This document shows, piece by piece, positions 31,372 to 64,000 of a DNA stretch of 64,000 nucleotides (positions within the stretch are counted from its first letter, which is position 1; the number at the start of each line of letters is the position of its first letter). A model generated the notes under the pieces. That model ran no database searches and was not told the origin of the DNA. It was given only the letters and a program-made list of their open reading frames with translations. The translations under genes were made by a program, and so were the position numbers. Source of the DNA: Balanoglossus misakiensis (lineage: Eukaryota; Animalia; Hemichordata); NCBI GenBank assembly GCA_040954595.2, contig CM082579.2, positions 14,608,550 to 14,672,549 of the forward strand, written 5' to 3'.

Positions 31372-32540
31372 ATGGATGGCAAGATATGGAAAAGTAGGTC
31401 AAAGGTCACCTGAGGTCATGCAAAATTTGGGCAAGAAATTTTGACCCTATACTGGTCCAAGTTGAACAAAAACCAAACCTATAGCCCTATTGGTTAGCCT
31501 GTAATTAGGTATGCACATAATTAATGAGATATGCAGGTGTCACAGGTGACCCATATTTTGGCTTTTCAATTTTAGTCCCAACCCTCCAAACGCGAAGTCT
31601 GTATCTGCTCTGGATGCCAAGATATGATAAAGTAGGTCAAAGGTCACCTGAGGTCATGCAAAATTTGGGCAAGAAATTTTGACCTTATACTGGTCCATGT
31701 TCAATAAAAACCAAACCTATAGCCTTATTGGTTAGCCTAGGATTAGGTATGCACATAATTAATGAGATATGCAGGTGTCACAGGTGACCCCCAATTTTGG
31801 CTTTTCAATTTTAGTGCCAACCCTCCAAACGCCAAGTCTGTACCTCCTCTAGATGCCAAGATTTGGTAAAGTAGGTCAAAGGTCACCTAAGGTCATGCAA
31901 AATTTGGGCAAGAAATTTTGACCCTATACTGGTCCATGTTCAACAAAAACCAAACCTATAGCCTTATTGGTTAGCCTGGAATTAGGTATGCACATAATTA
32001 ATGAGATATGCAGGTGTCACAGGTGACCCTCAATTTTGGCTTCTCAATTTTAGTGCTAATCCTCCAAACGCCAAGTCTGTACCTGCTCTGGATGCCAAGA
32101 TATGGAAAAGTAGGTCAAAGGTCACCTGAGGTCATGCAAAATTTGGGCAAGAAATTTTGACCCTATACTGGTCCATGTTCAACAAAAACCAAACCTATAG
32201 CCCTATTGGTTAGCCTGGAATTAGGTATGCACATAATTAATGAGATATGCAGGTGTCACAGGTGACCCATATTTTGGCTTTTCAATTTTAGTCCCAACCC
32301 TCCAAACGCCAAGTCTGTACCTGCTCTGGATGCCCAGATATAGGAAAGTAGGTCAAAGGTCACCTGAGGTCACCCAAAATTTGGGCAAGAAATTTTGACC
32401 CTATACTGGTCCATGTCCCACAAGAACGAAACCTCTAGCCCTATTAATTAGCCCGGAATTAGGTATGCACATAATTAATGTGTTAAGCAGGTGTTACAGG
32501 TGAGCCCAAAAATTTGCCTTTTATTTTGGCCCCATTGTGC
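31372..32540. repeat. Central tandem repeat of 238-239 bp, about 5 copies
   Basis: Marker agtaggtcaaaggtcacc at 31393, 31631, 31870, 32109 and 32347. Confidence 0.95.
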
Positions 32541-32940
32541 TCACTGGCCAATAGACAGTCACTGTACAGGACTATTGCAAAGACCAGAATTCCACAATAA
32601 GACGTGGACATAGCTTAACCATAGAGGTATAAGTAAAGGTATAAATTTAATAAAAAGACTAAAAAATTCATAAAAAATAAAACATCCATGATATCAACTT
32701 AACACTTACAGGTCGGTGTGAGGTTGACATAAGGTACATACATATCAATTTTCAAAGCAATCTGACCAGTAATTGTTGACTTACAGAGTTTTGATCAATT
32801 TCACATTTTACAAGCTAATTTGCATATTTTTGGGCCTAGCAACTTCGTTTGGACAAACTCCCATCTACAGCCCAGCCTGCACCTACACACCAAATATTGA
32901 GGTGATACGCGCAGCGGTTTTCAAGTTTTTGATGTGGACG

Positions 32941-33021
32941 GACATACAGACATACATCCATACATCCATACATCCATACATCCATACATCCATACATCCA
33001 TCCATCCATACATACATACAG
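32941..33021. repeat. (CATA/CATC)n microsatellite inside the HINE
   Basis: gacatacagacatacatccatacatccatacatcc...catacatacag. Confidence 0.95.
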
Positions 33022-33075
33022 ACGCAACCCATCCCATAAGGTCCCATGGTATATAGGCCTATACCAATGGGACCT

Positions 33076-42000: not shown

Positions 42001-44129
42001 GAAAAAATCATGGGTGAAAATCATCAAAAAATGAAAAATTTTCGACTGCAAAATCTCAAAATTTCGTCGATTTTTGAAAAAAAAACGGGTGAAAATCATC
42101 AAAAAATTACAAATTTTCGACTGCAAAAACTCAAAATTTCGTCAATTTTGAAAAAAATCATGGGTGAAAATCATCAAAAAATGACAAATTTTCCTCTTTG
42201 CAAAATCTATAAATTTCGTCGATTTTTGAAAAATTTTCAACTTTGCAAAATCTCAAAATTTCGTCGATTTTTGAAAAAAATCATGGGGGAAAATCATCAA
42301 AAAATGACAAATTTTCGACTGCAAAATCTCAAAATTTCGTCGATTTTTGAAATAAATCATTGTTGAAAATTATCAAAAAATGACAAATTTTCCACTTTGC
42401 AAAATCTCAAAATTTCGTCGATTTTTTGAAAAAAGACGGGTGAAAATCATCTAAAAATGACAAATTTTCGACTTTGCAAAATCTCAAAATTTCGTTGATT
42501 TTTGAAAAAAATCATGGGGGAAAATCATCAAAAAATGACAAATTAACGACTACAAAATCTCAAAATTTCGTCGATTTGTGAAAAAAAATCATGGGTGAAA
42601 ATCATCAAAAAATGACAAATTTTCCTCTTTGCAAAATCTATAAATTTCGTCGATTTTTGAAAAATTTTCAACTTTGCAAAATCTCAAAATTTCGTCGATT
42701 TTTGGAAAAAAATCATGGGGGAAAATCATCAAAAAATGACAAATTTTCGACTGCAAAATCTCAAAATTTCGTCGATTTTTGAAATAAATCATTGTTGAAA
42801 ATTATCAAAAAATGACAAATTTTCCTCTTTACAAAATCACAAAATTTCGTCGATTTTTTGAAAAAAGACGGGTGAAAATCATCTAAAAATGACAAATTTT
42901 CGACTTTGCAAAATCTCAAAATTTCGTTGATTTTTGAAAAAAATCATGGGGGAAAATCATCAAAAAATGACAAATTTACGACTACAAAATCTCAAAATTT
43001 CGTCGATTTGTGAAAAAAAATCATGGGTGAAAATCATCAAAAAATGACAAATTTTCGACTTTGCAAAATCTCAAAATTTTGCCAATTTTGAAAAAATCAT
43101 GTGTGAAAATCATCAAAAAATGACAAATTTTTTACTGCAAAATCTCAAATTTTCGTCGATTTTTTAAAAAAATTGTTGAAAATCATCAAAAAATGACAAA
43201 TTTTTGACTGCAAAATCTCAAAATTTCGTCGATTTTTGAAAAAAAATCATTGTTGAAAATCATCAAAAAATGACAAATTTTCCTCTTTGCAAAATCTCAA
43301 AATTTCGTCGATTTTTGAAAAAAGACATGGGTGAAAATCATCAAAAAATGACAAATTTTAGACTTTGCAAAATCTCAAAATTTCGTCGATTTTTGAAAAA
43401 AAATCATGGAGGAAAATCATTAAAAAATGACAAATTTACGACTGCAAAATCTCAAAATTTCGTCGATTTGTGAAAAAAAATCATGGGTGAAAATCATCAA
43501 AAAATGACAAATTTTTGACTGCAAAATCTCAAAATTTCGTCAATTTTTGAAAAAAATCATGGTTGAAAATCATCATGACAATGACAAATTTTCGACTTTG
43601 CAAAATCTCAAAATTTCGTCGATTTTGAAAAAAATCATGGGTTCGTCCATTTTTGAAAAAAAAACATTGGGTGAAAATCATCAAAAAATGACAAATATTC
43701 GACTTTGCAAAATCTCAAAATTTCGTCGATTTTTGAAGAAAATCATGGGTGAAAATCATCAAAAAATGACAAATTTTCGACTTTGCAAAATCTCAAAATT
43801 TCGTCGATTTTTGAAAAAAATCATGGGGGAAAATCATCAAAAAATTACAAATTTTCGACTGCAAAATCTCAAAATTTCGTCAATTTTGAAAAAAATCATC
43901 GGTGAAAATCATCAAAAAATTACAAATTTTTTACTGCAAAATCTCAAATTTTCGTCGATTTTTTAAAAAAAATGTTGAAAATCATCAAAAAATGACACAT
44001 TTTCCTCTTTTGCAAAATCTCAAAATTTCGTCGATTTTTGAAAAAAGACGGGTGAAAATCATCAAAAAATGACAAATTTTCGACTTTGCAAAATCTCAAA
44101 ATTTCGTCGATTTTTGAAAAAAATCATGG
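33076..44129 (+). repeat. 78/76-bp satellite array, right block
   Basis: Same monomer and orientation, rich in the 2-bp-deleted cgactgcaaa variant. Local duplications of 962 bp (33298/34260), 809 bp (35489/36298) and 1189 bp (38052/39241, 38880/40069). Confidence 0.99.
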
Positions 44130-45082
44130 CAGGTGTCAAAGGTATCCCCCTGTATTTGGCATTTCATGATAGTTTCATCCCTCCAAATACCAAAGCTGCA
44201 CCTGTACAACGGGATGAGATATGGCACTGTATGACAGAGGTCATCAAAATCACCTTATACATTTGGGCAAAAACCAACTGACACTTACATTCGTCCCTGT
44301 GGAACAAAAACCACACCTATCGCCCTGTTGGTTAGTGTCCAATTAAATGTACAAAATCAATGACTTAGGCAGGTGCAACAGGTGACCCCGCCTTTGGTAT
44401 ATCATTATGGTCCCATCCGTATATGCCCCCCCCCCCCAAGCCAAAGCTGCATGCATCTTCTGTAGATGCTCACTAAGCAAAAGTAGGTGAAAGGTCACAT
44501 AAGGTCGCCCACAACTTGACGGGAAAATCGGACTTCATATTGATCCATGTGCAACAAATACCACGCTACCACCCCTTTCATTGACCCCACAATTACGCAT
44601 GCACATAATTATTGAGTTACGCAGGTGTCACAGGTGACCCCCGAATCGGGTGTATTATTTTGGTCCCATACAGCTGCATGTAGCTGCGTGCCGTTACGGG
44701 CGACCTGATAACCCACACGGCCACCTGCGGGCCGACCCCCATACTGAACGTCCAGTTGCAACATCACGACTGAAGTAGGAACTTTTGAACGGCAACGAAG
44801 CCTGATCTCTGATTATTGCTGGTACCAAACTCCCTTCGTGCAAGAAAATCACTGGTCTGCTGACGTATTTCAGGCAATTTCCCAAACTACTATCCACTAC
44901 ATGTGACTACAATGCTAATGAAACCTCCCACAACATTAGCGACTTAGAGTCAAAGCCCACTGCCAGTGTAGCCGGGTTTGCGTAGACACATTTGAATGGC
45001 AACAGCTAACAAATAATAACAATTCTTTATTTCAGACTTTAAAAAAAGTCCATATACCCAAAAGAGAGAAGAAAAAAAAACA
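44130..45082 (-). mobile_element. Degenerate truncated HINE-family fragment (two diverged ~240-bp repeats plus unique segment)
   Basis: gcaggtgtca.aggt motifs at ~44129, 44369 and 44621; aaagtaggtgaaaggtcac at ~44480; segment ~44800-44960 resembles ~59283-59446; no termini recognised. Confidence 0.65.
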
Positions 45083-48000
45083 ATTAAAGCTGCGAGCAGC
45101 ATTGTCGGGCCCAAGCGCTGATCTTGAATTATATATGCACAGTATGAATGAGAAGAAACAGAATGCTTTATCAGGTTTTTTATCTCATGACATAACAAGG
45201 ACGTATGTATTTTTGCTGCAGAAATAGAGTAAAGTAGGTAAAAGGTCACCTGAGGTCATCCAAATTTTGGGAAATTTTTTTTTATCCATATTCGTCCATG
45301 TCCAACAAAAACCAAAACTCTAGCTCTATTGGTTCGTCTGTAATTAGGTATGTGCATATTTAATGAGGTCAGCAGGTGTCTCTGGTGACCCAAAAATGTG
45401 GGTTTACATTTTGGTCCCATCCTGCCAAATGCTAAGGTTGTATCTGCTCTGGATGCTGAGATATGCGAAAGTAGGTCATAGGTCACCTGAGGTCACCAAA
45501 CATTTGGGCAACATTTTTTGACCCATACTGGTCCATGTCAAACAAAAACTAAAACTCTAGCTCTATTGGTTCGCCTGTAATTAGGTATGTGCATATTTAA
45601 TGAGGTCAGCAGGTGTCACAGGTGACCCAAAAATGTGGCTGTACATTTTGGCCCCATCCTGCCAAATGCCAAGGCTGTATCTGCTCTGGATGCTGAGATA
45701 TGCGAAAGTAGGTCAAAGGTCGCCTGAGGTCACCAAACATTTGGGCAAAATTTATTGACCCATACTGTTCCATGTCCAACAAAAACTAAAACTCTAGTTC
45801 TATTGGTTCGCCTGTAATTAGGTATGTGCATATTTAATGAGGTCAGCAGGTGTCACAGGTGACTCAAAAATGTGGCTTTACATTTTGGTCCCATCCTACC
45901 AAATGCCATGGCTGTATCTGCTCTGGATGCTGAGATATGCGAAAGTAGGTCAAAGGTCACCAGAGGTCACCCAACATTTGGGCAAAAAATTTTAATCCCA
46001 TACTGGTCCATGTCCAACAAAAACCAAACCTCTAGCTCTATTGGTTCGCCTGTAATTAGCTATGCACATAATTAATGAGGTCAGCTGAGGTCAAAGGGCT
46101 CATGAAAAGTAGCAAAATATTTTGATCACACACTAATCCACATTCATCAAAAACCAAACGTCTAGCCCTATAGGTTAGCCTGGAATTAGATATGCAGAAA
46201 TAATAATGCGTGATAAGTAGGTCAAAGGTCATGTGAAAAATCGCCAAAAAATTGTAACATATTTTAGTCACATGACGATTGATATCCATAAAAAGAATTT
46301 GTATGCTATCAATTTTTAGACTAGAAAAAGGAATGTCAATTTTTCACTGCTTTTTACAAAATCCAATATGGCCGCCATAATCTTCGACCAATCACAATGC
46401 TCTTTGCAAACTTGATAGACATCAGTGTAGTGACCATACTCCCCGAATCTTGCAACTCAGTCATCTCCCATTCTGGAGAAGAAGATTTTTGGAGTTTAAC
46501 TATGGTTTTTCGAAAATCCAATATGGCCGCCATAATCTTCGACCAATCACAATGATCTTCGCAAACTTGATAGACATCAGTTAGGTGACCACATACCCCA
46601 AACCCCGTGTCTCGGTTATCACCGGTTCTGGAGAAGAAGATTTTTGAAATTTAAGCCAGATTTCACAAAAAAAATTGTAGCAAAAAAACTGCAACATTTT
46701 GAGCAAAATTTCCAATTACAAAAATGATGGGTAGAAGGTAGTCTACCTGTATGCCAAATTTGAAGTCTATCTGACTTGTAGTTTCTGAGATCTGAGATTT
46801 GCATTTTTTCAGAAAATCCAATATGGCCGCCAGATCACGTGACTAATTAAGTATTCACAAGTCACTGCACATCTACTCATTGACCTTGACCACTGTAGCA
46901 AGTTTGAGAAGTGTACCTGCAGTAGTTTCAGAGATCTCGTTGGCCGAAGAATTGACACAAGAATAAAGAAAGAAAGAAAGATTAAAGCTGCAAGCAGCAT
47001 TGTCCGGGCCCAAGCTCTATTATCTGATCTGATTATTAGATATGCACATAATTAATGAGTAGAAACATAATGCAGTGTTTTATCCCATGAAATATCAAGG
47101 TTATATCTATGTTTGGTGCTGATATAGTGTTAAGTAGGTCAAAGGTCACCCAGGGGTCACCCACAATTTGGGCAGAATATTTTGACCCATAGTGGTCAAT
47201 GTCCAACAAAAACCAGACCTCTAGCCCTTTTGGTTAACCCGGAATTAGGTATTCACATAAATAATGCGTAAAGCAGGTGTCACAGGTGACCCCACAACTT
47301 TGGCTTTTCATTATGGCCCCATACCTCCAAACGCCAAGGTTGTACCTGCTTTGGATGCTGAGATATGCAAAAGTAGGTCAAAGGTCATCTGAGGTCACCC
47401 AAAATTTGGGTAGAAAATTTTGACCCATAGTGGTCCATGTATAACAAAAACAAAACCTCTAGGTCTATTGGTTCATCTGTAATTAGGTATGTGCATATTT
47501 AATGAGGTCAGCAGAGGTCAAAGGGGTCATGAAAAGTAGCAAAATTTGTTGATCACATACAAATCCACATACATCAAAAACCAAACTTATAGCCCTATTG
47601 GTTAGCCTGGAATTAGATATGCAGAAAAATGATGCGTCAAAAGTAGGTCAAAGGTCATTGCCAAAATTACCAAAATATTTATAGCTTATTCTTGTCATAT
47701 GATGATTCATATCCATAAAAAGAATTTCTGTGCTATCAATTTTTAGGCTAGAAACGGAATTTTTACTTTTTAATCGTTGTTCACAAAATCCAATATGGCC
47801 GCCAAAATCTTCGACCAATCACAATGATCTTCGCAAACTTGATAGACATCAGTGTAGTGACCATACTCCCCAAATCTTGTGACTCGGTTATCGCTGGTTC
47901 TTGAGAAGAAGATTTTTGAAATTTTACTAGGGTTTTTCGAAAATCCAATATGGCCGCCATAATCTTCGACCAATCACAATGATCTTCGCAAACTTGATAG

Positions 48001-50407
48001 ACCTCAGTTTGGTGACCACATACCCCAAACCCAGTGTCTCGGTTATCACCGGTTCTGGAGAAGAAGATTTTTGAAATTTAAGCCAGATTTCAGAAAAAAA
48101 ATTGTAGCAAAAAAACTGCAACTTTTTCAGCATAATTTCCAATTACAAAAATGATAAGCAGAAGGTAGTCTACCTGCACGCCAAATTTGAAGTCGATCTG
48201 ACTTGTAGTTTCTGAGATCTGAGATTTGCATATTTTCAGAAAATCCAAGATGGCTGCCAGGTCATGTGACTAATTAGAAATTCAAGGGTTCAATGCACGA
48301 CTACTCATTGACCTTGACCACTGTAGCAAGTTTCAGAAGTGTACCTGCAGTGGTGTCTGAGATCTAGAGCGACAAAGAATTGACACAAGAATAAAGAAAG
48401 AAGAAAGAAAGAATATAGCTGCAAGCAGCGATGACGGGCACAAGCTTAAGCCGAAGGTCAAAGGTCATATGTGGTCACCCAAAATTTGGGCAAAAAGTTT
48501 TGACCCCCATACTAGTCCAGGTCCAACAGAAACCTGACCTCTAGCCCTATTGGTTTGTCTGAAATTAGAAATGCACATAATTAATGATGTAAAGTGGAAG
48601 ACTCCATTAATAGTTCGATCCATCCAAACACAAATGATGTACCTGCTCTGGATGCCGAGATATAGCAAAGTAGGTCAAATGTCACCTGAGGTCACCCAAA
48701 ATTTGGGCAAAATGTTTGACCCCATACTGATCCATGTCCCACAAGAACAAAACCTCTAGCCCTATTGGTTAGCCTGGAATTAGGTATGCACATAATTAAT
48801 GAGATATGCAGGTGTCACAGGTGACCCCCAATTTTGGCTTTTCAATTTAAGTCCCAACCCTCCAAACGCCAAGTCTGTACCTGCTGTGAATTCCGAGATA
48901 TAGGAAAGTAGGTCAAAGGTCACCTGAGGTCACCTAAAATTTGGGCAAAAATTTTTGATCCCATACTGGTCCATGTCCCACAAGAACAAAACCTCTAGCC
49001 CTATTAGTTAGCCTGGAATTAGGTATGCACATATTTAATGAGTTAAGCAGGTGTTACAGGTGAGCCCAAAATTTTGCCTTTTATTGTGGTCCCATTCTGA
49101 TCACGGGCCAATAGAGAGTCACTGTACAGGACCATTGCACAGCCAACGTGGACATAGCGTGATAGCTTAACTATAGAAAGTATAGGCCTATGGCTGGGTC
49201 CAAAAACATGAAAAATAAAAAAATCTTCTTCTCAAAATAGACTTGGCCCACGGCCTTGACATTTGGCATGTAGGACACTGACCACATGGTCTGCAAAAAT
49301 CCCTAAAAGAATTTTGATATCTCCATTCATATGCAAATTAGGCCCATTTGAAAACTTTGCCCATATATGGTCATCAGGTCACATGACTTATTAAACATTC
49401 ACGAGGGTACAGCACCAGCTCTCATAGGCCTGCATCAGTGTGCCAAGTTTGAGATTTGTAGGTTCAGCCGTTTTCAAGATCCTGTTGGGCAAAAAAACGA
49501 CACAAGAAAAAAAAAAAGAAGAATTAAAGCTGCAAGCAGCATTGTCCGGGCCCAAGCTCTATTATCTGATCTGATGCTGATATAGTGTTAAGTAGGTCAA
49601 AGGTCACCCGAGGTCACCCAACATTTGGGCAAAATATTTTGACCCCATACTGGTCCATGTATAACAAAAACAAAACTTCTAGGTCTATTGGTTCATCTGT
49701 AATTAGGTATGTGCATATTTAATGAGGTCAGGAGAGGTCAAAGGGGTCATGAAAAGTAGCAAAATTTTTGGATCACATACAAATCCACAAACATCAAAAA
49801 CCAAACTTATAGCCCTATTGGTTAGCCTGGAATTAGATATGCAGAAAAATCATGCGTCAAAAGTAGGTCAAAGGTCATTGCCAAAATTACCAAAATATTT
49901 ATAGCTTATTCTTGGCATATGATGATTCATATCCATAAAAAGAATTTCTGTGCTATCAATTTTTAGGCTAGAAAGGGAATTTTTACTTTTTAATCGTTTT
50001 TCACAAAATCCAATATGGCCGCCAAAATCTTCGACCAATCACAATGATCTTCGCAAACTTGATAGACATCAGTGTAGTGACCATACTCCCCAAATCTTGT
50101 GACTCGGTTATCGCTGGTTCTTGAGAAGAAGATTTTTGAAATTTTACTAGGGTTTTTCGAAAATCCAATATGGCCGCCATAATCTTCGACCAATCACAAT
50201 GATCTTCGCAAACTTGATAGACCTCAGTTTGGTGACCACATACCCCAAACCCAGTGTCTCGGTTATCACCGGTTCTGGAGAAGAAGATTTTTGAAATTTA
50301 AGCCAGATTTCAGAAAAAAAATTTCAGAAGTGTACCTGCAGTGGTGTCTGAGATCTAGAGCGACAAAGAATTGACACAAGAATAAAGAAAGAAGAAAGAA
50401 AGAAAGA

Positions 50408-52125
50408 ATTAAAGCTGCAAGCAGCATTGTCCGGGCCCAAGCTCTATTATCTGATCTGATTATTAGATATGCACATAATTAATGAGTAGAAACATAATGC
50501 TGTGTTTTATCCCATGAAATATCAAGGTTATATCTATGTTTGGTGTTGATATAGTGTTAAGTAGGTCAAAGGTCATCTGAGGTCACCCAAAATTTGGGCA
50601 GAAAATTTTGACCCATAGTGGTCCATGTCCAACAAAAACCAGACATCTAGCCCTTTTGGTTAGCCCGGAATTAGGTATGCACATAAATAATGAGTAAAGA
50701 AGGTGTCACAGGTGACCCAAAACTTTGGCTTTTCATTATGGCCCCATACCTCCAAATGCCAAGACTGTACCTGCTTTGGATGCCGATATATGCAAAAGTA
50801 GGTCAAAGGTCATCTGACTTCATCCAAAATTTGGGCAGAAAATTTTGACCCATAGTGGTCCATGTCCAACAAAAACCAGACATCTAGCCCTTTTGGTTAG
50901 CCCGGAATTAGGTATGCACATAAATAATGAGTAAAGCAGGTGTCACAGGTGACCCAAAACTTTGGCTTTTCATTATGGCCCCATACCTCCAAACGCCAAG
51001 GCTGTATCTGGTGTGGATGTCGAGATATGCAAAAGTAGGTCAAAGGTCACCCGAGGTCACCCAACATTTGGGCAAAATATTTTGACCCCATACTGGTCCA
51101 TGTATAACAAAAACAAAACCTCTAAGGTCTATTGGTTGATCATTAATTAGGTATGCGCATATTTAATGAGGTCACCAGAGGTCAAAGGGGTCATGAAAAG
51201 TAGCAAAATTTTTTGATCACATACAAATCCACATACATCAAAAACCAAACTTATAGCCCTATTGGGTAGCCTGGAATTAGATATGCAGAAAAATGATGCG
51301 TCAAAAGTAGGTCAAAGGTCATTGCCAAAATTACCAAAATATTTATAGCTTATTCTTGGCATATGATGATTCATATCCATAAAAAGAATTTCTGTGCTAT
51401 CAATTTTTAGGCTAGAAAGGGAATTTTTACTTTTTAATTGTTTTTCACAAAATCCAATATGGCCGCCATAATCTTCGACCAATTACATTCCTCTTCGCAA
51501 ATTTGATAGACATCTGTTTAATGACCACACACACCAAATCTTGTGACTCAGTTATCGCCGGTTCTTGAGAAGTAGATTTTTGAAATTTTACTAGGGTTTT
51601 ACGAAAATCCAATATGGCTGCCATAATCTTCGACCAATCACAATGATCTTCGCAAACTTGATAGACATCAGTTAGGTGACCACATACCCAAAACCCCGTG
51701 TCTTGGTTTTCACTGGTTCTGGAGAAGAAGATTTTTAAAATTTAAGCCAGATTTCAGAAAAAAAATTGTAGCAAAAAACTGCAACTTTGTCAGCATAATT
51801 TCTAATTACAAAAATGATGGGCAGAAGGTAGTCTACCAGCTTGCCAAATTTGAAGTCGATCTGACTTGTAGTTTCTGAGATCTGAGATTTGCATTTTTTC
51901 AGAAAATCCAAGATGGCCGCCAGGTCACGTGACTAATTAAAAATTCAAGGGTTCAATGCACGACTACTCATTGACCTTGACCACTGTAGCAAGTTTCAGA
52001 AGTGTACCTGCAGCGGTGTCTGAGATCTCGTGGGTCAAAGAATTGACACAAGAATAAAGAAAGAAAGAAAGTAAAATTCCAACGAAACCAATACGGGCCC
52101 AAGCCTGGCTTGGCTTGGGCCCGTA
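50408..52125 (-). mobile_element. HINE E5 (B-like), uninterrupted full-length copy nested in E4
   Basis: B-type head at 50408; ~240-bp repeats; (GAAA)n runs directly into its own hairpin tacgggcccaagc-ctggcttg-gcttgggcccgta (52092-52125). Confidence 0.87.
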
Positions 52126-55092
52126 ATTAAAGCTGCGAGCAGCATTGTCGGGCCCAAGCGCTGATCTTGAATTATATATGCACAGTATGAATGAGAAGAA
52201 ACAGATTTTAATATCGGATGTATTATCTCATGACATAACAGGGATGTGTGTATTTTTGCTGCTGAAATAGGGTGAAGTAGGTCAAAGGTCACCTGAGGTC
52301 ACCCAACATTTGGCCAATTTTTTTACCCATACTGGTCCATGTCCAACAAAAACCAAAACTCTAGCTGTATTGGTTCACCTGTAATTAGGTATGTGCATAT
52401 TAAATGAGGTCAGTAGGTGTCACAGGTGACCCAAAAATTTGGCTTTACATTTAGCTCCCATCCTGCCAAATGCCAAGGCTGTATCTGCTCTGGATGCTGA
52501 GATATGCGAAAGTAGGTCAAAGGTCACCAGAGGTCACCCAACATTTGGGCAAAAAATGTTGACCCCATACTGGTCCATGTTCAACAAAAACCAAACCTCT
52601 AGCTCTATTGGTTCGCCTGTAATTTGCTATGCACATAACTAATGAGGTCAGCAGAGGTCAAAGGGGTCATGAAAAGTAGCAAATTTTTTTGATCACACAC
52701 TAATCCACATGCATCAAAAACCAAACGTCTAGCCCTATAGGTTAGCCTGGAATTAGATATGCAGAAATAATAACGCGTGAAAAGTAGGTCAAAGGTCATG
52801 TGAAAAATCGCCAAAAATTTGTAACATATTGTAGTCATATGACGATTGATATCCATAAAAAGAATTTGTATGCTATCAATTTTTACACTAGAAAAAGGAA
52901 TTTTAATTTTTCACTACTTTTTACAAAATCCAATATGGCCGCCATAATCTTCGACCAATCACAATGCTCTTTGCAAACTTGATAGACATCAGTATAGTGA
53001 CCATACTCCCCAAATCTTGCGTCTTAGTTATCGCCCGTTCTGGAGAAGAAGATTTTTGGAGTTTAACTATGGTTTTTCGAAAATCCAATATGGCCGCCAT
53101 AATCTCCGACCAATCACAATGATCTTCGCAAACTTGATAGACATCAGTTAGGTGACCACATACCCCAAACCCCGTGTCACGGTTATCACCGGTTCTGGAG
53201 AAGAAGATTTTTGAAATTTAAGCCAGATTTCAGAAAAAAAAATTGTAGCAAAAAAACTGCAACATTGACAGCAAAATTTCCAATTACAAAAATGATGGGT
53301 AGAAGGTAGTCTACCTGCATGCCAAATTTGAAGTCGATCTGACTTGTAGTTTCTGAGATCTGAGATTTGATTTTTTTCAGAAAATCCAATATGGCCGCCA
53401 GGTCACGTGACTAATTAAGTATTCACAAGTCACTGCACATCTACTCATTGACCTTGACCACTGTAGCAAGTTTGAGAAGTGTACCTGCAGCGGTGTCTGA
53501 GATCTCGTTGCCCAAAGAATTGACACAAGAATAAAGAAAGAAAGAAAGATTAAAGCTGCAAGCAGCATTGTCGGGCCCAAGCGCTGATCTTGAATTATAT
53601 ATGCGCAGTATGAATGAGAAGAAACAGAATTTTCTATCGGGTGTATTATCTCATGACATAACAAGGACGTGTGTATTTTTGCGGCTGAAATAGGGTAAAG
53701 TAGGTCAAAGGTCACCTGAGATCACCAACATTTGGGCAAAAATTTTTGACCCATGCTGGGCCATGTCCAACAAAAGCCAAAACTCTAGCTCTATTGGTTC
53801 GCGTGTAATTAGGTATGTGCATATTTAATGAGGTCAGCAGGTGTCACAGGTGATCCAAAAATTTGGCTTTACATTTAGGTCCCATCCTGCCAAATGCCAA
53901 GGCTGTATCTGCTCTGGACGTTGAGATATGCGAAAGTAGGTCAAAGGTCACCAGAGGTCACCCAACATTTGGGCAAAAAATTTTGACCCCATACTGGTCC
54001 ATGTTCAACAAAAACCAAACCTCTAGCTGTATTGGTTCGCCTGTAATTAGCTATGCACATAATTAATGAGGTCGGCAGAGGTCAAAGGGGTCATGAAAAG
54101 TAGCAAAATATTTTGATCACACACTAATCCACATGCATCAAAAACCAAACGTCTAGCCCTATAGGTTAGCCTGGAATTAGATATGCAGAAATAATAATGT
54201 GTGAAAAGTAGGTCAAAGGTCATGTGAAAAATCGCCAAAAATTTATAACATATTGTAGTCATATGACGAATGATATCCATTAAAAGAATTTGTATGCTAT
54301 CAATTTTTATACTAGAAAAAGGAATTTTAATTTTTCACTGCTTTTTACAAAATCCAATATGGCCGCCATAATCTTCGACCAATCACATTGCTCTTTGCAA
54401 ACTTGATAGACATCAGTGTAGTGACCATACTCCCCGAATCTTGCGACTCAGTCATCGCCCGTTCTGGAGAAGAAGATTTTTGGAGTTTAACTATGGTTTT
54501 TCGAAAATCCAATATGGCCGCCATAATCTCCGACCAATCACAATGATCTTCGCAAACTTGATAGACATCAGTTAGGTGACCACATACCCCAAACCTTGTG
54601 TCTCGCTTATCACCGGTTCTGGAGAAGAAGATTTTTGAAGTTTAAGCTAGATTTCAGAAAAAAAATTGTAGCAAAAAAACTGCAACATTGACAGCAAAAT
54701 TTCCAATTACAAAAATGATGGGTAGAAGGTAGTCTACCTGCATGCCAAATTTGAAGTCGATCTGACTTGTAGTTTCTGAGATCTGAGATTTGATTTTTTT
54801 CAGAAAATCCAATATGGCCGCCAGGTCACGTGACTAATTAAGTATTCACAAGTCACTGCACATCTACTCATTGACCTTGACCACTGTAGCAAGTTTGAGA
54901 AGTGTACCTGCAGCGGTGTCTGAGATCTCGTTGCCCAAAGAATTGACACAAGAATAAAGAAAGAAAGAAAGCCGGAAAGAAAGAAAAATTCCAACGAAAC
55001 CAATAGGGCCCAAGCGCTTGCGTGCGCTTGGGCCCTAAAAAATTCCAACGAAACCAATAGGGCCCAAGCGCTTGCGCGCGCTTGGGCCCTAA
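52126..55092 (-). mobile_element. HINE E6 (subfamily A), nested in E4 next to E5; body 52126-53548, tail 55039-55092
   Basis: A-type head attaaagctgcgagcagcattgtcgggcccaagcgctgatcttg; A-type tail. Confidence 0.8.
53549..55038 (-). mobile_element. HINE E7 (subfamily A), innermost uninterrupted full-length copy nested in E6
   Basis: A-type head at 53549; body continuous through (GAAA)n into tail 54986-55038. Confidence 0.87.
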
Positions 55093-55303
55093 AAACCCCA
55101 ACGAAACCAATAGGGCCCAAGCGCTGGCTTGCGCTTGGGCCCTAAAAAACCCAGTAATACCAATAGGGCACAAGCCTGCTTGGCTTGTGCCCTAAAAAAC
55201 CCCAACGAAACCAATAGGGCCCAAGCGCTGGCTTGCGCTTGGGCCCTAAAAAATTCCAACGAAACCAATAGGGCCCAAGCGCTTGCTTGCGCTTGGGCCC
55301 TAA
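54986..55303. repeat. Stack of six ~50-54-bp palindromic hairpin units (displaced HINE termini)
   Basis: Six units of ..ccaatagggc(c/a)caagc-loop-gcttg(g/t)gccctaa, in variant order A,A,B,C,B,A. Confidence 0.95.
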
Positions 55304-55458
55304 TAATAATAATCTGACACTGAGACACACACAAAAAAAAACTTACATGATATACAATTGCTTTCGCCAATGTTTGAAAAATATGCTGTCAGTCGCTCTA
55401 TCTGATGAACAGATCGCATCAAGTAAAACATTAGAAGAATTTTCGAGTCTACGCTTAA

Positions 55459-56253
55459 TATGGGTCCCTGGGATCTTTTTGCTCGTTGCTATGGGCCTTT
55501 ATAGGACATTACACCCCGATTTGGACTAAGCCGTTTTCAGAGTCTAACAAGGGGCTGGTAACTAGTTGAAAATCTGCACGATTGTGAGCGCGCGCCCCCT
55601 GACGCCATTGATATGAAAATTAGCTAGGTCAAATTTCAAAAGCCTAAGGCTTTTTATTCCGTGACCTCAAAAACGAACTTGATACGTATTCATTAGTTGC
55701 TTGAACCAGGGAAGATCGTGACGGATTTTGTTTTCGAATATTATCGTTGTATCCTAAGATTTCAGCATACCCGTACCACACCTGAAAAAGTCATCGATTT
55801 TGGGTGTTTTTGGACGCACTCTTCCACCGGTATCGCTTCTTAGCACGACGAAAACCGAAAAAACGATCCGTCACACTGTGCGGAAGTGCGTTCTCAACAA
55901 GCAGGTCAAATTTGACTGGCGTACGTGGCCTATGAAAAAAGCCTTAGGGATTTTCGTGAACGGTACAAAATCTCTGTGTACAAAACATTGGATTTTTAGC
56001 GTTCGATCCAGTTACTGTGGTTACAGGACGCGCACGCTATCGCTGACCGCTGCTTTGCCGTATTAGCGTGGCGGCCTATGGCCGGGTGGTAGCTGCCGTA
56101 AACATACTCGGACAGGGGGTGTGCACATAATCGTGCAGATTTTCAACTAGTTACCAGCCCCTTGTTAGACTCTGAAAACGGCTTAGTCCAAATCGGGGTG
56201 TAATGTCCTATAAAGGCCCACAGCAACGAGCAAAAAGATCCCAGGGACCCATC
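55459..56253. mobile_element. TTAA-targeting MITE with ~140-bp TIRs (Kolobok-like), 795 bp
   Basis: 55460-55600 (atgggtccctgggatctttttgctcg...ccccctg) is the near-perfect reverse complement of ~56113-56252; TTAA at 55455-55458 and 56254-56257; right terminus reads GA inward, fitting Kolobok RR ends rather than piggyBac CCC. Confidence 0.88.
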
Positions 56254-56385
56254 TTAAAACTGTACATATTGCGTCTAAAAACTTCACCAAGTGACAATAC
56301 ATGTACATGGTTTGTAGCAAACATACCCGATGCACAGCAAAATGGTGGAAGACCGAGAAATCTTCTGCAAACATTATTGTACATA

Positions 56386-57267
56386 CAGTAAAACCTGTCA
56401 AAACCGGACCCTGGTAAAACCGGACCACTGTCCATACCGAACGATTTTTTCAGTCCCTGCCCACTCCCATAGACGCCCTGTGTTAAAAAACCTCTGCAGA
56501 CCGGCCACTGTCTACTGTGGAAACCGGACGGGATTTCGAGCGAAAACCGGACGGAACGACTGTTTGAAGACGGCATCTTTTCAAGTTTCTTTGTTTTTGC
56601 TACGTTAAAGATATGATGAATCACTGTCTTTTGTCTTTGAGTTTTGTTTTGACCAATTTAACAAGCAATCAACGGCGTGGAGCTGTCACTCAAGCAAGGC
56701 GTGAACGCATTCTATTGTTCGACTCCTTTGTCGCATATTTTTGACAAGTGGAGTGTCACCGCAGTAATGAGCTCTGTTGTCGGCTGATCAAACATAACGT
56801 TTCCCCGTGTCATTTTTTTCGGACGGTCAAAGCTATGAAGGCACATTTAATCAGAGCGATGTATACGAGCGCGTCTGTCCTGGCTAGCAACGGAGTCGTA
56901 CGATCGTGCGGTTGTAGATTGCTCCATCACTTCCGCGTTCGGCGCGTTCGGCGGCGCTAGTGCGTTCGCTCGCATATTTTGCGAGTCCAGCTGTAGCCAG
57001 GCCGTTCGTGAGTGTAGTTCTCGTTCACATAAAAAAAAGGAAAAATATTTATTGTGTATTCGTTTAGACCTATGCTAAATTATCCATACACTTTATTGTT
57101 CCATGACGCCCGTGGTCGTACGTGCGTATGGTATGTATACGGTCGATGTGTGAAACACGGCCGGATCGGAAAACTTTTGACCACGCCCACCCCTCCAAAC
57201 CGGACCACTGTTCAAACCGGACAGATTTCTCAGTCCCCCCAGAGTCCGGTTTTGACAGGTTTTACTG
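56386..57267. mobile_element. Tc1/mariner-pogo-type MITE, 882 bp, TA TSD
   Basis: Perfect 24-bp TIR cagtaaaacctgtcaaaaccggac / gtccggttttgacaggttttactg; TA at 56384-56385 and 57268-57269; repeated subterminal aaaccggac motifs; no transposase ORF. Confidence 0.93.
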
Positions 57268-59250
57268 TAGTTTTAAATTTTTTCATCGGTTTAACTTTAA
57301 AGGATGCCCACAAACTGCAACAGTAAATATTACTACAATATGCCAAAAATAAAACTTTCTTCACATCTTGACTACAATGTTGAAAATGTCTCAATAGCAT
57401 GTTTGCTCTTACACAAAATGCTCTTCTCTGTCGTTCAATATCTTCATTATCACAACCATCACAAGATATAACATGGCCCAGATAGGTGTGTACAGGTACA
57501 AACTTTAAAGTGATGTCATTAAGTTTAACCGAAGGAATTCTTTGAACGCTCATATTCTTCCCATTAAAAAGCATGCACACAGTTTTACTAGAATTATAAA
57601 TGATATCATAATCCTTGCCATAAATTTCACAAATTCTAAGAAGACGGCGTAGACCCTTAATACTTGGACTGAGTAGAGTCATGTCGTCAGCGTAACCTAA
57701 AGTGTTAGCGCTGACACCACACATGGTACAGCTAACTTTGGCTTTACAGAGTGCATTGATAATATCATCAATGTAGACATTAAAAAGATAGGGAGAGAGT
57801 ACCCCCCCTTGTCTTACACCGTTAGAAACAGAAAACAACTCTGAGGTTTCATTACCCCACAACACAGTAAACAATTGATTTCTGTACCATTAATATAAAA
57901 TTCGTACAGCATACAAGGGAACATTCCTGTCGATGTGCTTGTTAATTATAACCAGTTTAAAGTGATTAACTCTGTCAAAAGCTTTTGAAGCATCCAGAAA
58001 ACAAGTAAACACTGGTCTTCCATTGCTGGTGTAGTAGCTAATGATTTCTTTAAATGCAAATAAACACAGGTCAGTTGAATGTTCTCGCTTGAAACCAAAT
58101 TGTAAATAATGAGAGGTAAGAAACTCCTCACAACGAGAAAGTAAAATATGCTCAAAAACTTTAGAGAAAACAGTTGCTAGTGCTATCGGCCGGTAGTTAC
58201 TGGCATCACTACAAAGCTTAGTTTTATCCTTAATAATTGGAACTAAATTAACATTGATAGCCTCAGTTGGCAGGTAACCATGAACAATCATTGCATTAAT
58301 ACAACAAGTCAAAAAGGGTAAAATAGAGGAGTCTGAGAATTTGAGGTGCTCAGCTAAAATATTGTCAATGCCAGCTGTCTTACCATCAGGTAACTTATGT
58401 ATAGCAGAAATTACTTCGTCTTCAGAAACATACATATCAGAAGAAAATTTAACATACTTCATTTTCTCCTCGATGTCATTTCTACCAGTCTGAGCCTGGA
58501 CAGAATTCAAAATATCACTGAAATGCTTGTGCCACATAATTGCAATTTCACTCTCACCAGTCGCTCCACCTACAGTGTCAGAAAGCGGCGTTTTTCTGCT
58601 AGTTTGCTTTCTGACTTCCTCCCAGAAGTCGTTCTGTTTGTGGCAGCGTAAATTATCAGCCATCTTGTCAGCCCTATTTTGATTCTCAATCTTTTTACAA
58701 GCACGTAAAGCATACTAAAAACGAGCTCTGGAAGATTTCATGGTTTCAAAAAGCGGGCCTTGTTTAGGTTAACCCACATTAACCCATAATAAAAACATGG
58801 AACGGGCATAGTCGTGACTTTCTTTTACAAAATCGTTCCAGCCAGGCACAACATGAACTTTCTGGTGAAACTTACGTCTAATGGTATCTTTTGCAGCACA
58901 ATTCAATGCGTCCACAATACTACTATAACAAGTATCAATTGCCTGTAAATGCGAAGGGTCTGTACAGTTCACATTAGTGCAGAATAACTCTTCGGATAAA
59001 TTAATCTTATCAATCTTGGCTTTGGTACAACCGGTGTAGGCGGATATATTCTGCTGTGACAATTGTTTCCAATCAACTCGAAAATTACATTGCTTGAAGG
59101 AACTACTGCTGAAGCTTTCATCAGCAGAAGTGTTGAAATGAACCTCTATTGAAACAGGAATATGGTCGGAGTCAACAACATTGCAAAGACTCGAAATTGA
59201 AAGAACATTGCTATGAGAAATTTCAGTGGTAACACAGTAGTCAATCCAAA

Positions 59251-59850
59251 CTCAGCGTAATTCAATAAAACGCCCTAACACAGCCTGAACTCCGATAATG
59301 TGTTGTCCCAAAATTCATTCCGTGGAAAATAATCACTGGTCTGTTTACGTATTTCAGCCGATTTTCCAAGGACTACTGCAACCCGCCAGAAGTGAGTAGC
59401 CTGCTAATGAGATCTCCACAACATAACGTAATGACGGTCAAAGTCCGATGCCCCAGTGTCCGTCCTCAGCCCACCAAAAAAAGCGAAAAAATATTACAAA
59501 AATCTTCTTCTCAAAATCGACGTGGCCTAGGACCTTGAAATTTGGCACAGGGGATTTTGGCCACATGGTCTACAAAAATCGCGAAAAGAATGTACATGCC
59601 CCCATTAACGTGCAAATTAGGTCAATTTGAAAATTTCGCTCGATTATAGCAACAAAGTCACGTGACTAATTACAAATTCAAAGGGCTGGTGCACCAGTAC
59701 TATGGGCCCCAACCACCGTGCCAAATTTGGAAGGCGCACCTGCCGGAATTTCAGAGAAAAACGGGCGCAAAAAACGACTCAAGAAGAAAGAAGACAAACT
59801 CCAGCAATAACAGAAGGGGACCAAGCGCCTGAGGGCTCTTGGTCCCCTAA
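59251..59850 (-). mobile_element. Truncated HINE retaining core, GAA tract and terminal hairpin
   Basis: Core from aaaaatcttcttctcaaaat (~59498) resembles E3 ~49218-49500; aagaagaaagaag tract; hairpin aggggaccaag...cttggtcccct (59815-59848) followed by AA. Confidence 0.78.
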
Positions 59851-60587
59851 ATATGGGACTAAACTTGACAGATACCCGGAATATTTTCCTATTCAGGATA
59901 CCTGGTTGCATTTCCACCTAAAGGCGTCCTATTGGCGTGGAAATTGTATAACTTGAAATCGTTTGACTGGGTGATAGGTATTAATATCTTATGATGTTAT
60001 AAAACACTTGGCTCGCCGAAGGTATGGACCGATTATAGCGTCAGTCGTGTCGTACAATCTATATGAACGTCATGGGTCAATAAACTTGATGGTCCAATAA
60101 AATTCAATGGTTAGTAAAACTATTGTGTCCAATGTCTGCAGAGTATACTGGCTGCAACATGTGTATGAGTCAGGATTAATGTCTGTAGCCATCAACCCAA
60201 AAGGTGAACGTCCTATTCTCACTAACTTAAATAGGTTTTGCGACCTAGTTGAGTTATAAAAACCTTATGATAAAGTCGACACAATTTCAAGATGACGATG
60301 TGCAAATGAGAGTTCATAAGCTAAAGTAAAGTTCAATGAATTCTATACAAAGTTCAAAAAAGATTGTTTACTAAAGGAAGACATGAAAAAACTGATATCG
60401 TCTCTTCATATTCGTACATGTCCAACTGTTGTGATTTGACCCCTCCCCCCCCCCAGGACATGGTACATGAAGCTATTACTTAGTACACACTTAAACAATT
60501 GGCATTTGAAGTGCCTTGCTTGACAGTGTTTAATGCGGTGGTCAGTCGCGTTTATCTCTCGCCACTTCATGCATCATGTCGCCTTAA

Positions 60588-60895
60588 AGGGGCAAACTCT
60601 CTCTCCCGTCGCCCTTTTCTATTAATAATGTTTGATACAAGACACCGTTTATATTAATGGGCATGTGTATATGTAGTGAATGAACGTTCAACCACACACA
60701 ACTTCCATCCTGCTTGTATGATATGAGAGTAAAAACTCGCCCAAAATGAATAAATGGTAGAGACCGATTTTTCAGTTTGGCGAGTTTTCGCTCTCGTGTC
60801 TACATGCGGGATGGAAGGTGTGTGCGGTTGAACGTTGCATCACTATATATCCACATTTACATTAACATAAACGGTGTTTTGTATTGTCATTTCTT
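60588..60895. mobile_element. Fold-back TTAA MITE (Kolobok-like), copy 1
   Basis: TTAA at 60584-60587 and 60896-60899; long inverted arms (aacgttcaaccacacac / gtgtgtgcggttgaacgtt); homologous to 61679-61969; right terminus degenerate. Confidence 0.75.
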
Positions 60896-61678
60896 TTAAT
60901 CGTGGATTTTCGTTTCTGATTTGTATGTATAATGAAAATCCATTTTGGGTCACTGCACTTGTTTTCGACTTTAAACAAGGCCGTGAATTTAGTCGATAAT
61001 TGAAGAAAACTGCTGACGGTCAGCATTTTCTACCAATGGTTTGCCTATGGATACAATATTGAACAAAGTTTATCTCAAAATAGACCGTGGTGAATTTATT
61101 TTGATTTGTCGGAGCTATGTGTAAAATTTCCTGAAAATGACAATAATAGAAGGGAGTTTTCTAACTATTCTCCATGTACTCCTATGGGAAGAGACACAGG
61201 CGCACTGTTTACCAGTTGACGTTCTGCGCGTACATCATTGAGTGTACTGGCAGCTAACTTATTGTTTATTTGTAACAGCAATTGGATCTTGGAGCACTGT
61301 TTGGAACACCCTTTGTGAAATATGAATGTCCAGAAGGTAAGTTGAATTGACCCTAGCCCTTTCACCAACATGGTTCAGTCAAAACCAATTGTTTTCTATG
61401 GTAATGTTGGACCTCTAAAGAGGAAACGGGGGGGGGGGGGGTGATGAAAGGTTTAAGACTTACAGATCACAACTTAAATAGCCATTCAGAAAGAGGCTTA
61501 GAGTGGAGTATCAAATCGGACGATACCACTGACTGGTGGAGGAAGACAAAATAAGCAAACTGAGTAGATGAGTGCTCAGATTTCTTCAGAGGACCAAACG
61601 TTTCAAAGAATTATACGTGACAATCCATGCCTGGTCCGTCAGTAGATATAAACAGAACATTGTGGCTGTATTCATTAA

Positions 61679-61969
61679 AGGGACAAAGTCTCTCTCTCGC
61701 TGCCCTTTTTCCATTAATTATGTTTGATACAAGACTGCGTTTATATTATTCTACATGTGGATATAGTGAATCAACGTTCAACCATACACACCTTCCACTC
61801 CGCTTGTATAGACACGAGAGTTTTAAAAAGTCGCCAAAATGAATAAACGGTCTCTACCATTTATTCATTTCGGGCGGGTTTTTACTCTCGTATCATACAA
61901 GCGGGATGGAAGTTGTGTGTGGTTGAACGTTCATTCACTAACATAAACGGTGTCTTGTATCATGTCCCT
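61679..61969. mobile_element. Fold-back TTAA MITE (Kolobok-like), copy 2
   Basis: ttaa-agggaca ... tgtccct-ttaa termini; inverted arms gatacaagac / gtcttgtatc and aacgttcaacca / tggttgaacgtt. Confidence 0.85.
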
Positions 61970-62230: not shown

Positions 62231-64000
62231 CTTAGTGTGAGGTGTTCAGCGATTGCATCTGATAAGTCGAAAATGCTTGATCACGTGTCATGTTCAGTTG
62301 GGAAATTGGATATGTCTCAGGCCAAAAAAACTAATATGTGCTATTCCGATTACATGGTTTTCAAAAATAGGGTAGGTAGAAAGGGACATTTTTTTATTTT
62401 TCAATTTTTTTATATCTTTGGCCGTCGTAGTGTAGAAGAATGACATCATAGTTCTTGCGTGATTCTCGCAATTTTCATGAATTGTTGTATATTTGACATC
62501 GTTATTTTTACTTCCGGTTTACGAAGATCTAAACTGTTTTGGGTCGGCGGGCTAAAATTAGGGTAGTTCGGGTAATCGTTATGACATTGGGAGCTACGGC
62601 TGCAAAGCCATGTGTCTCGTGCGAAAAGGGCCAGACAGAGCAACATTCATCAGTAGAGACACTCATCGGTCGCTCGCTCGCTCGCTCGCTCACTCTCTCT
62701 CTCAGAGAGAGGGGGCAGACAGTCAGACAGACCGACGTTGACAGACAGTCAGTAAGTCAGTCAGCCAGTTAATCAGTCAGTCAGACGTCAAAGACACAGT
62801 GACACAAACACAGCGAGGGAGACAACAGGACCTTTCATGCTTAAACCCCTGTTCTTCTGTTATAAACTTTGAAAACCGTTCGTTTTCAGACTGCAGATTG
62901 CTCGAATAACGCGACACACTGCCGAAACAATAAAACAAATACTAGTGGGAGCTCATAAAATAAAATCGCTCAACCATTCCGTCGTCCTGAGTGACCTCAG
63001 CCACATTAATTCCGACGTCTTTTTAGGGTCATGAAAAAAGTCACAAATAAGGTATTTCCCCTAGGTCCACCTGAAGCAAAAAGTTTTCGTTTCGACTCCA
63101 TCATTCCGAATAATAAGAAAGCAACAAAATTGAAAAGACAGATGTAAAATGCACTCTCTCTCACGTGGTAACGTTTGTAACTATGGCAATCACGGTACGT
63201 GTTCAGTACACAGACAGGGAGAAAAGTTTCTCCATGCAATACATGTGTTCAGTAAGGTTTGACCTTGGTTTTACATTGTACCATGATCGCCGCTTTCTAA
63301 GCATGGATGAACGACGGCGGTCAGACCCAATCGAACCCTTTCATGTCAGATGACCACGGTATCTCCACTGTGAGATGACATTTGACAAACCATTTGATTT
63401 CAACAAAATCTTCGCGTCGTCAACGCGTCGCATACCAGTCGCATGTCGGTATTTACCCAATCATAAAAGTTGGAAATTCGGGAGACTCGATCTGCAACCA
63501 AGTTGAGAGTAAATTTTGACGTTTGACTATTGGCAAGTAAACAGGTTACACAATGACTTGTCGGTTTTTCCTCCGTCATGGTCGTTCTCGACCCAAGTCC
63601 CCCCTCCCAATGTCCTTCCTTGACATTTAGACACACCTTGCGGTATGACCTTGGTGGTCATGTGCAATTAGTTTTCTTGTATAAAAGCTTTTCATGCCGG
63701 GGTAGACGACTTGTGCGTGGATCATCAACATTTCAGTGATATTTCAACGCAAAGTTTTAGCAATATTAAGAAAACAGGTAGTGAGGTGTCAAATGCATAT
63801 CAATGTACGAAAATTAGGTCAAGCCACCCGACAGCAACCGCTTTCACACAGTGTCGGACGTTGCACGGAATGTGAAACGTTACACTGCTTCGGCCGTTCA
63901 CATGCACCTGGGCGTGGGTTTGATTGATGGTCAAACGCCCCCACTTACTTTGGGCGTTTTCAATGGTAAATGTGTCGTATTGATCAAAACCTTGCCGTAA
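62231..64000 (+). repeat. Copy 2 of the long direct repeat (matches 1-1923)
   Basis: Same sequence lacking 404-567 (164 bp), with 13 extra bp (tcccccctcccaa near 63598) and roughly 20 scattered substitutions by eye. Confidence 0.97.

Follow-up and report, generated by a model that had tools for sequence, protein, structure and literature searches.

Seven copies of a mobile element, E1 to E7, occupy positions 45084-55303 of a 64-kb stretch of Balanoglossus misakiensis DNA (contig CM082579.2; hereafter, the window), where they are nested six deep (E1>E2>E3>E4>E6>E7, with E5 alongside E6), as a first-pass annotation of the sequence had proposed. Judged by their sequence, all seven lie on the minus strand and resemble non-autonomous Helentrons (HINE/HLE2), and the nest very probably arose by serial insertion of new copies into the T-run behind the 5' hairpin of a resident copy, with a RepHel transposase acting in trans. 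The annotation had likewise read the locus as serial, co-oriented insertion at one internal site, and this view is supported by equal numbers of the two kinds of end, class-matched brackets, rebuilt hosts, and junctions found in another sample.

Ends and layout of the nested copies

We scanned the whole window on both strands for head and hairpin motifs. The head motif, a stem-loop plus GGGC[C/A]CAAGC, occurs seven times, all on one strand, with TTAA/TAT cores at 45084, 46982, 48414, 49524, 50409, 52127, and 53550; four extra matches at 44445-44685 are bare 14-mers with mismatches and without the subterminal inverted repeat (subTIR). The hairpin motif also occurs seven times in a single orientation, once at 52087 (T0) and as a stack of six at 54999, 55053, 55106, 55159, 55210, and 55264 (T1 to T6), which bears out the seven heads and seven terminal hairpins (one plus six stacked) of the first-pass annotation. 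The annotation called these hairpins tails; they are indeed terminal, but the Helentron convention places the element on the minus strand and makes them 5' termini. The locus accordingly holds seven 3' termini and seven 5' termini.

Read on the minus strand, a copy opens with T's and a hairpin containing the subTIR. Behind the hairpin, a 17-nucleotide (nt) spacer leads to a T-run, after which comes a (TTTC)n tract; internal repeats of 155 bp and 237 bp follow, and the copy closes with a second subTIR, then a weak stem-loop of 5 bp and T's. Hairpin stems of 13-14 bp (-16.3 to -19.1 kcal/mol) are present in all seven tails, and the subTIR gives an exact match of 10-12 nt in 7/7 assigned head/tail pairs, its 5' copy lying 3-4 nt from the end. 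The GCTGC/GCAGC repeat of the heads (7/7) contributes about -3 kcal/mol and is part of the minimum-energy fold in only four of them. The nest has no coding frame (longest stop-free frame, 114 aa), and a search of 44000-56500 against Rfam at gathering scores returned no match; no RepHel transposase was found within the window or among the related-locus scans of sequence collections. The absence of coding capacity, the (TTTC)n near the 5' end, and the central 237/155-bp repeats are those of non-autonomous HINE/HLE2 elements. In the accessible parts of the reports on HINEs, or DINE-1-like non-autonomous Helentrons (Thomas, Vadnagara and Pritham 2014, PMC4067079), and on HLE2 (PMC11417382), the likeness extends to subTIRs, an inverted repeat beside the 5' subTIR, a short 3' stem-loop, a microsatellite, central tandem repeats, the lack of a coding frame, what may be a T-rich target without duplication, and a variable terminal T.

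All copies and stubs lie on the minus strand. E1 (45084-46981; subfamily A), the outermost copy, comprises a 3' end (subTIR and small stem-loop, 45084-45120), a body with the 237-bp/155-bp repeats, and (TTTC)n up to the insertion site. E2 (46982-48413; subfamily B), with 3' end, body, and microsatellite, lies in the T-run of E1; E3 (48414-49523; subfamily C), whose 3' end carries the subTIR GGGCACAAGC and is followed by a body and pyrimidine tract, lies in that of E2; and E4 (49524-50408; subfamily B) lies in that of E3. The T-run of E4 holds two copies, E5 (50409-52126; B lineage), complete and uninterrupted with its own hairpin variant T0 (about 52073-52124), and E6 (52127-53549; subfamily A; 3' end, body, and microsatellite), which starts 2 A from the 5' end of E5. 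The innermost copy, E7 (53550-55038; subfamily A), is complete, with its own 5' hairpin T1. Five 5' stubs follow: T2 (55039-55092; spacer plus hairpin with subTIR), which is probably that of E6 and has one derived loop base in common with T1, T3 (55093-55145) assigned to E4, T4 (55146-55195) assigned to E3, T5 (55196-55249) assigned to E2, and T6 (55250-55303), the outer end of the nest, assigned to E1.

Bodies are 853-1874 nt long when measured to a common anchor. Mutual identity is 95-96% in class A (E1, E6, E7) and 92-96% in class B (E2, E4, E5), and class C (E3) has 76-82% identity to the remaining copies over aligned parts. Relative to E2, E4 has internal deletions of 84, 237, and 229 nt and 14 substitutions, none of them in the tail-proximal part. 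Trees were built for three segments (E4 absent from all, E3 from two); those of the middle and head segments, from which E3 and E4 were excluded, split A from B with full support, and the segment trees back the two classes and give no dating of layers.

Pairing of heads with tails

The tails fall into the classes that the first-pass annotation had described: T1, T2, and T6 are of the aattcc type, T3 and T5 are identical and of the aacccc type, and T4 alone carries GGGCACAAGC. More specifically, T4 matches the E3 head over 10 nt, compared with 6-7 nt for the other six tails, and is thereby the sole hairpin matching that head. Five of the six internal heads (E2, E3, E4, E5, and E7) stand directly after the GAA(A) tract of the previous copy, as annotated, and the head of E6 instead follows the hairpin of E5 with 2 A between, the sole end-to-end join among the six internal junctions. 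Taken as brackets, these ends give the nesting stated above; the brackets leave the order of arrival of E5 and E6 unfixed.

A linkage between head class and tail class had also been predicted. It holds for E3 and T4 and fails for E5, whose head equals that of E2 over 60 nt and which yet closes with an aattcc-type hairpin unlike T3/T5. Heads are poor labels of tails; the tail-proximal body labels them, and among heads only C is diagnostic. Complementarity of the subTIR was tried as a label separating A from B tails and failed. For A heads, the match is 12 nt long both with T3/T5 and with the tails assigned to them.

Rebuilt hosts share one insertion site

We peeled the nest in silico from the inside out, excising each inner copy together with two A. 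As the first-pass annotation had anticipated, every step rebuilt a junction of tract and hairpin. The rebuilt hosts resemble the intact E7 end, which has 5 A between the GAA(A) tract and the hairpin unit: the corresponding counts are 5 for E6, 5 for E4 (after removal of E5 and E6), 6 for E3, 6 for E2, and 5 for E1. The stubs measure 48-52 nt, and the five rebuilt hosts carry a run of 5-6 T located 48-52 nt inside the 5' end; the locus thus displays stacked short 5' stubs, each ending at a T-run behind a hairpin (five stubs plus T1), in the manner of FoHeli elements. Excision of E1 restores a clean (AAT)4 in the untranslated region (UTR) of a long interspersed nuclear element (LINE), and no target duplication is seen beyond about two added T per insertion. 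A T-rich target rule (TT; TTTT|T or C) fits 5/5 rebuilt hosts and the LINE UTR, the hosts being in silico reconstructions in which the partition of the T's is ambiguous.

Each host offers 13-31 TTTT|Y runs on its two strands, and the same run on the same strand was used in 5/5 hosts. The log10 P for five shared sites is -9.1 (any TT), -5.9 (TTTT|Y), or -6.6 (any such run), values that treat the events as independent and refer to a target chosen post hoc. In all seven copies, the most purine-rich 25-mer lies in the tract next to this run (23-25 of 25 purines, versus 20-21 elsewhere). Two further HINE-like elements of the window (31315-33077 and 59251-59850) have no T5 run at the equivalent position and no insertion there, a small sample that is consistent with this choice of site.

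In the mechanism we propose, a RepHel transposase supplied in trans would insert a copy into the run of 5-6 T, 48-52 nt inside the resident 5' end. Each insertion would shift the 5' stub of its host outward and supply a fresh T-run and (TTTC)n tract, so that the cycle could repeat; co-orientation of the copies would follow because only one strand of the tract offers TT. As to why this T-run was chosen, a sequence preference for a T-run followed by a pyrimidine tract of 20-30 nt may well be the reason, and a transposase held by the resident 5' hairpin is a tentative second candidate, the rest of our expectation going to both acting together. The preference is favored over tethering because the pyrimidine tract, the purest stretch of each copy, recurs at the LINE site, where there is no hairpin. 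It is possible, if doubtful, that insertion amounts to a mode of homing in which the hairpin and subTIR at the 5' end of the resident copy attract the complex of RepHel and donor and steer integration to the first T-run behind them.

Junctions in contigs of another sample

Three runs of one sample, X1, X2, and X3, were available as contigs only and contain 0.62, 0.52, and 0.12 of the nest's words, respectively. Fifteen of 154 joints were listed, with microsatellite tracts left out; the contig findings given here are among the matches listed, absent cover proves nothing, and contig depth is not copy number. The sample is probably not of this haplotype, and X3, which may be another kind or a relative, serves as a hint only.

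An E5-type hairpin joined to an aacccc stub was present with 5 A (depth 6100 in X1, 2253 in X2) and with 6 A (depth 3875 in X1, 1568 in X2), with 22-23 letters on the short side. This is the junction expected of E5 inserted in E4 before the arrival of E6. The intact join of E7 body, microsatellite, and T1 is found letter for letter in an X1 contig (depth 2917), and joins of hairpin to head occur at depths of 714 and 1143. At hairpin-stub joins, A-run length variants (near-side letters only) were recorded at 55037 (7044/6138), 55248 (18042/3800), and 55143 (3827/680). Other contigs have a C hairpin followed by a C stub, or an E5-type hairpin followed by an aattcc stub. In X3, a T4-like hairpin stands behind an E3-like body end, and another T4-like (C) hairpin is followed by a stub of a fourth family, that found near 59800 in the window. 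The long X2 contigs have depths of 29.5 and 37.2. As hairpin-on-hairpin junctions that are absent from this locus reach depths in the thousands, stacking appears to recur.

Scans of wider collections gave no relatives. The hairpin pattern matched 1 viral-contig locus and at least 119 metagenome-contig loci, and 0 of these 120 resemble the element beyond hairpin matches of 31-32 nt; an internal 19-mer matched three loci in viral contigs, with the likeness limited to the motif; and a tail 26-mer had no match in genome contigs. One metagenome contig (L019:12-758) carries a short hairpin repeat three times, also present in L085; it looks bacterial and unrelated.

Weighing serial insertion against other explanations

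Several observations weigh against insertion in strictly mirrored order at one fixed site. The tail order agrees with the bracket prediction of the first-pass annotation in class, and its figure of one order in 30 is arithmetically right, but with T1 fixed, A,B,C,B,A is a palindrome, so that class labels cannot split last-in-first-out from first-in-first-out. When body-end distances were correlated with tail distances over the 120 body-to-tail pairings, this class order came within the top 4, with the parallel order at ranks 1-2 (r 0.884) and the mirrored order at ranks 3-4 (r 0.866). One loop base only, that common to T1 and T2, favors the mirrored order. B heads match T0 over 11 nt versus T3/T5 over 10 nt, and the A heads, as noted, do not discriminate. 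Nor is the site strictly fixed: in one contig joint (52127 to 54980; depth 1255), a GAAA unit separates hairpin and stub, so that the hairpin lies about one repeat unit deeper. In a 298-nt X3 contig, taken as a single record from its length, depth, and strand, a C-like body with 14 differences in 167 nt seems to be joined to a hairpin that has GGGCCCAAGC rather than GGGCACAAGC; the diagnostic A of T4 is absent from this hairpin, and its spacer is T4-like. The high-depth double hairpins may stem from a few amplified composites rather than from many events, and, among the matches listed, no contig of X1 to X3 extends across the whole nest.

A further point concerns the bodies themselves. E2 and E4, like E6 and E7, are identical across the last 53 nt of the tail-proximal body, and E6 and E7 are identical for 300 nt beside the microsatellite except for one 1-nt gap, with 52 substitutions elsewhere (about 5% divergent), a skew with P of about 7e-8 if substitutions were uniform. 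The lack of substitutions near the tail in both pairs suggests that gene conversion in the nest, or chimeric or mosaic masters, acted too, beside serial insertion. The parallel order is rejected mainly because insertion cannot yield crossed brackets, and the mirrored order rests on topology. The earlier statement that the locus records the order of insertion stands as far as the nested topology goes; the order of E5 and E6 is not fixed by it, the order statistic alone does not prove mirrored order, and, since sub-nests may have arrived preassembled, the recorded order need not be that of events at this locus.

The rival that survives best, and which we regard as rather unlikely, is that the nest was partly or wholly built elsewhere by the same chemistry and moved here as a composite, by a nick at the outermost 5' end with the inner 3' ends read through. 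It is compatible with serial insertion and alters only the place of the events; the stack would then not document seven insertions here. The outer ends (E1 head and T6) are intact and share a 12-nt match; according to the available parts of PMC5148889, composite FoHelis that carry several 5' termini move as units; and particular double-hairpin junctions reach depths of thousands. The host LINE, moreover, looks young, as an X2 contig equals 55350-55458 letter for letter (109 nt, depth 3235). In contrast, the Fusarium model halts at the first 3' end and leaves more 5' than 3' ends, so that with seven of each a composite move would need read-through of every inner 3' end, and the LINE also took two other insertions, which makes the region a landing ground.

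Serial insertion also accounts better for the array than tandem amplification, by which a rolling-circle or unequal-exchange array of head-plus-body units would stand next to a separate 53-bp hairpin minisatellite. We consider this very improbable. Tandem Repeats Finder does report the six stacked hairpins as a 54-bp array with 87% matches, E6/E7 and E2/E4 share long identical tracts, and satellite DNA is abundant in the region. Yet the units belong to three subfamilies with 76-96% identity, interleaved as A,B,C,B,B,A,A; the number of stubs equals that of open heads; stub classes track bodies rather than neighbors (T3 equals T5 across T4); and stubs and bodies are interrupted at the same A-run. 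The first-pass annotation was right to set aside a rolling-circle concatemer, which would consist of near-identical units joined end to end, a join seen at 1/6 internal junctions here. On logical grounds we also rejected homologous recombination between a circle and a resident copy, as it would give end-to-end tandems rather than displaced stubs. Least probable of all is misassembly, in which dispersed copies of this very abundant family would have been falsely joined into an array that no listed contig spans, since an assembler has no reason to balance seven ends with seven, to match classes in order, or to keep the A counts, independent contigs hold hairpin-hairpin and hairpin-head joins, and both flanks belong to one LINE, in register.

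Genomic setting

The left flank (45005-45083, minus strand) has no hairpin and reads as the apparent 3' end of the host LINE, with a pyrimidine tract and then a poly-A-signal-like AATAAA. The right flank (55304-59250, minus strand) is a broken LINE with RVT_1 in two frames at 57230-58714 (matches in 2 of 3 frames tested) and a C-terminal frame at 56256-56388 and 55330-55457. This C-terminal frame spans two terminal inverted repeat (TIR) elements, and its stop and short 3' UTR adjoin T6. Both flanks are parts of one minus-strand LINE, as inferred for the left flank, with the nest in its 3' UTR.

The first TIR element (55458-56255) is non-autonomous and flanked by TTAA, with 143-bp TIRs of 95% identity; the LINE without it is seen as an X1 loose end at 55458. 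The second (56386-57261), in the LINE frame, has ends CAGT... and is flanked by TA. Older related HINE pieces flank the LINE at 44130-44970 and 59251-59850 (44799-44969 versus 59282-59459, 72%). They are possibly one element split by the LINE, giving a larger doll of HINE > LINE > nest plus the two TIR elements; the head of the fourth-family element at 59251-59850 was not found in the window.

A 78-bp AT-rich satellite that shows higher-order repeats fills about 42 kb (2249-44129) just upstream of the HINE/LINE cluster. Within this satellite, a solo HINE-like element of a related family (31315-33077) has a 239-bp internal repeat in common, a (CATC/CATA)n microsatellite, a terminal hairpin, and the subTIR GGTCCCATT at both ends; it lies in an A-run and is not nested. 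Positions 1-1923 and 62231-64000, about 62 kb apart, are 98% identical, the first with an extra 163-nt piece (404-566), and represent a dispersed repeat or a large duplication. At 60584-61948, direct and inverted repeats of 180-270 nt (79-85%) suggest a further TIR-type element.

Relation to known Helentron and Helitron arrays

The statements that follow concern the accessible parts of the sources cited. In Fusarium, FoHelis (Helitron2) carry duplicated 5' stubs of 31-85 nt, for which self-insertion near the 5' end was proposed (Chellapan et al. 2016, PMC5148889); in FoHeli3.3 the stack comprises four such stubs, all with a terminal T-run behind the hairpin, and the Helitron2 target lies between TTTT and T or C (PMC5148889). 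Two to five 5' termini, up to five in TR4, are reported in PMC13342296, and a double 5' terminus in Metarhizium acridum is mentioned in the same literature (PMC5148889, PMC13342296). The suggestion that the present architecture had not been described was hence too strong. Whereas FoHelis combine several 5' termini with one 3' terminus moved as a unit, there are seven of each here, all seven bodies and 3' ends survive, three subfamilies are involved, and the genome is of animal type. The locus looks like the nested precursor of Fig. 7a in PMC5148889, repeated five times.

For the HINEs of PMC4067079, clustering and tandem arrays are described, not repeated insertion at one internal site as here. 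Tandem Helitron arrays have been ascribed to missed termination or circle amplification (PMC4067079, PMC5148889); they resemble the nest in their co-oriented bodies, and the E5/E6 junction is truly end to end, but the units here differ by 4-24%, and their 5' ends have been shifted together into a single stack. In Lepidoptera, the Helitron-like MINE-1 elements insert in (GAAA)n (Coates et al. 2010, cited in PMC3812793); there the target is a host microsatellite, whereas here the GAAA is carried by the element. Nothing on self-nesting was found in the parts of PMC3630058 and PMC9075770 consulted, and in the open-access literature, the body of work covered, we came upon no account of an animal nest with several layers that is complete and retains every body. 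Stacked 5' termini by self-insertion are already in print; what is new is that a nest six layers deep, built from more than one subfamily, is preserved intact in a genome of animal type.

This nest provides, in intact form, the intermediate of the published model in which multiple 5' termini arise by self-insertion, and carries that model from a fungus to an animal-type genome. For target choice of HLE2/Helentron elements beyond "TT", five events in one run of 5-6 nt, across subfamilies, point to a much sharper preference, for which the pyrimidine tract and hairpin tethering form a concrete pair of hypotheses separable by a transposition assay. In assemblies, what are taken for short hairpin "minisatellites" or long "tandem" arrays of HINEs may likewise be nests that order subfamily activity in time. 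If homing is true, the Helentron origin would also serve copies of its own subfamily and of sister subfamilies as a landing pad, with resident copies as safe havens, and composites and chimeras would be fed by self-landing. The nest would in that case preserve, as a direct fossil, the self-insertion step that for Fusarium is a proposal, and target choice by HLE2 transposases could readily be tested on it.

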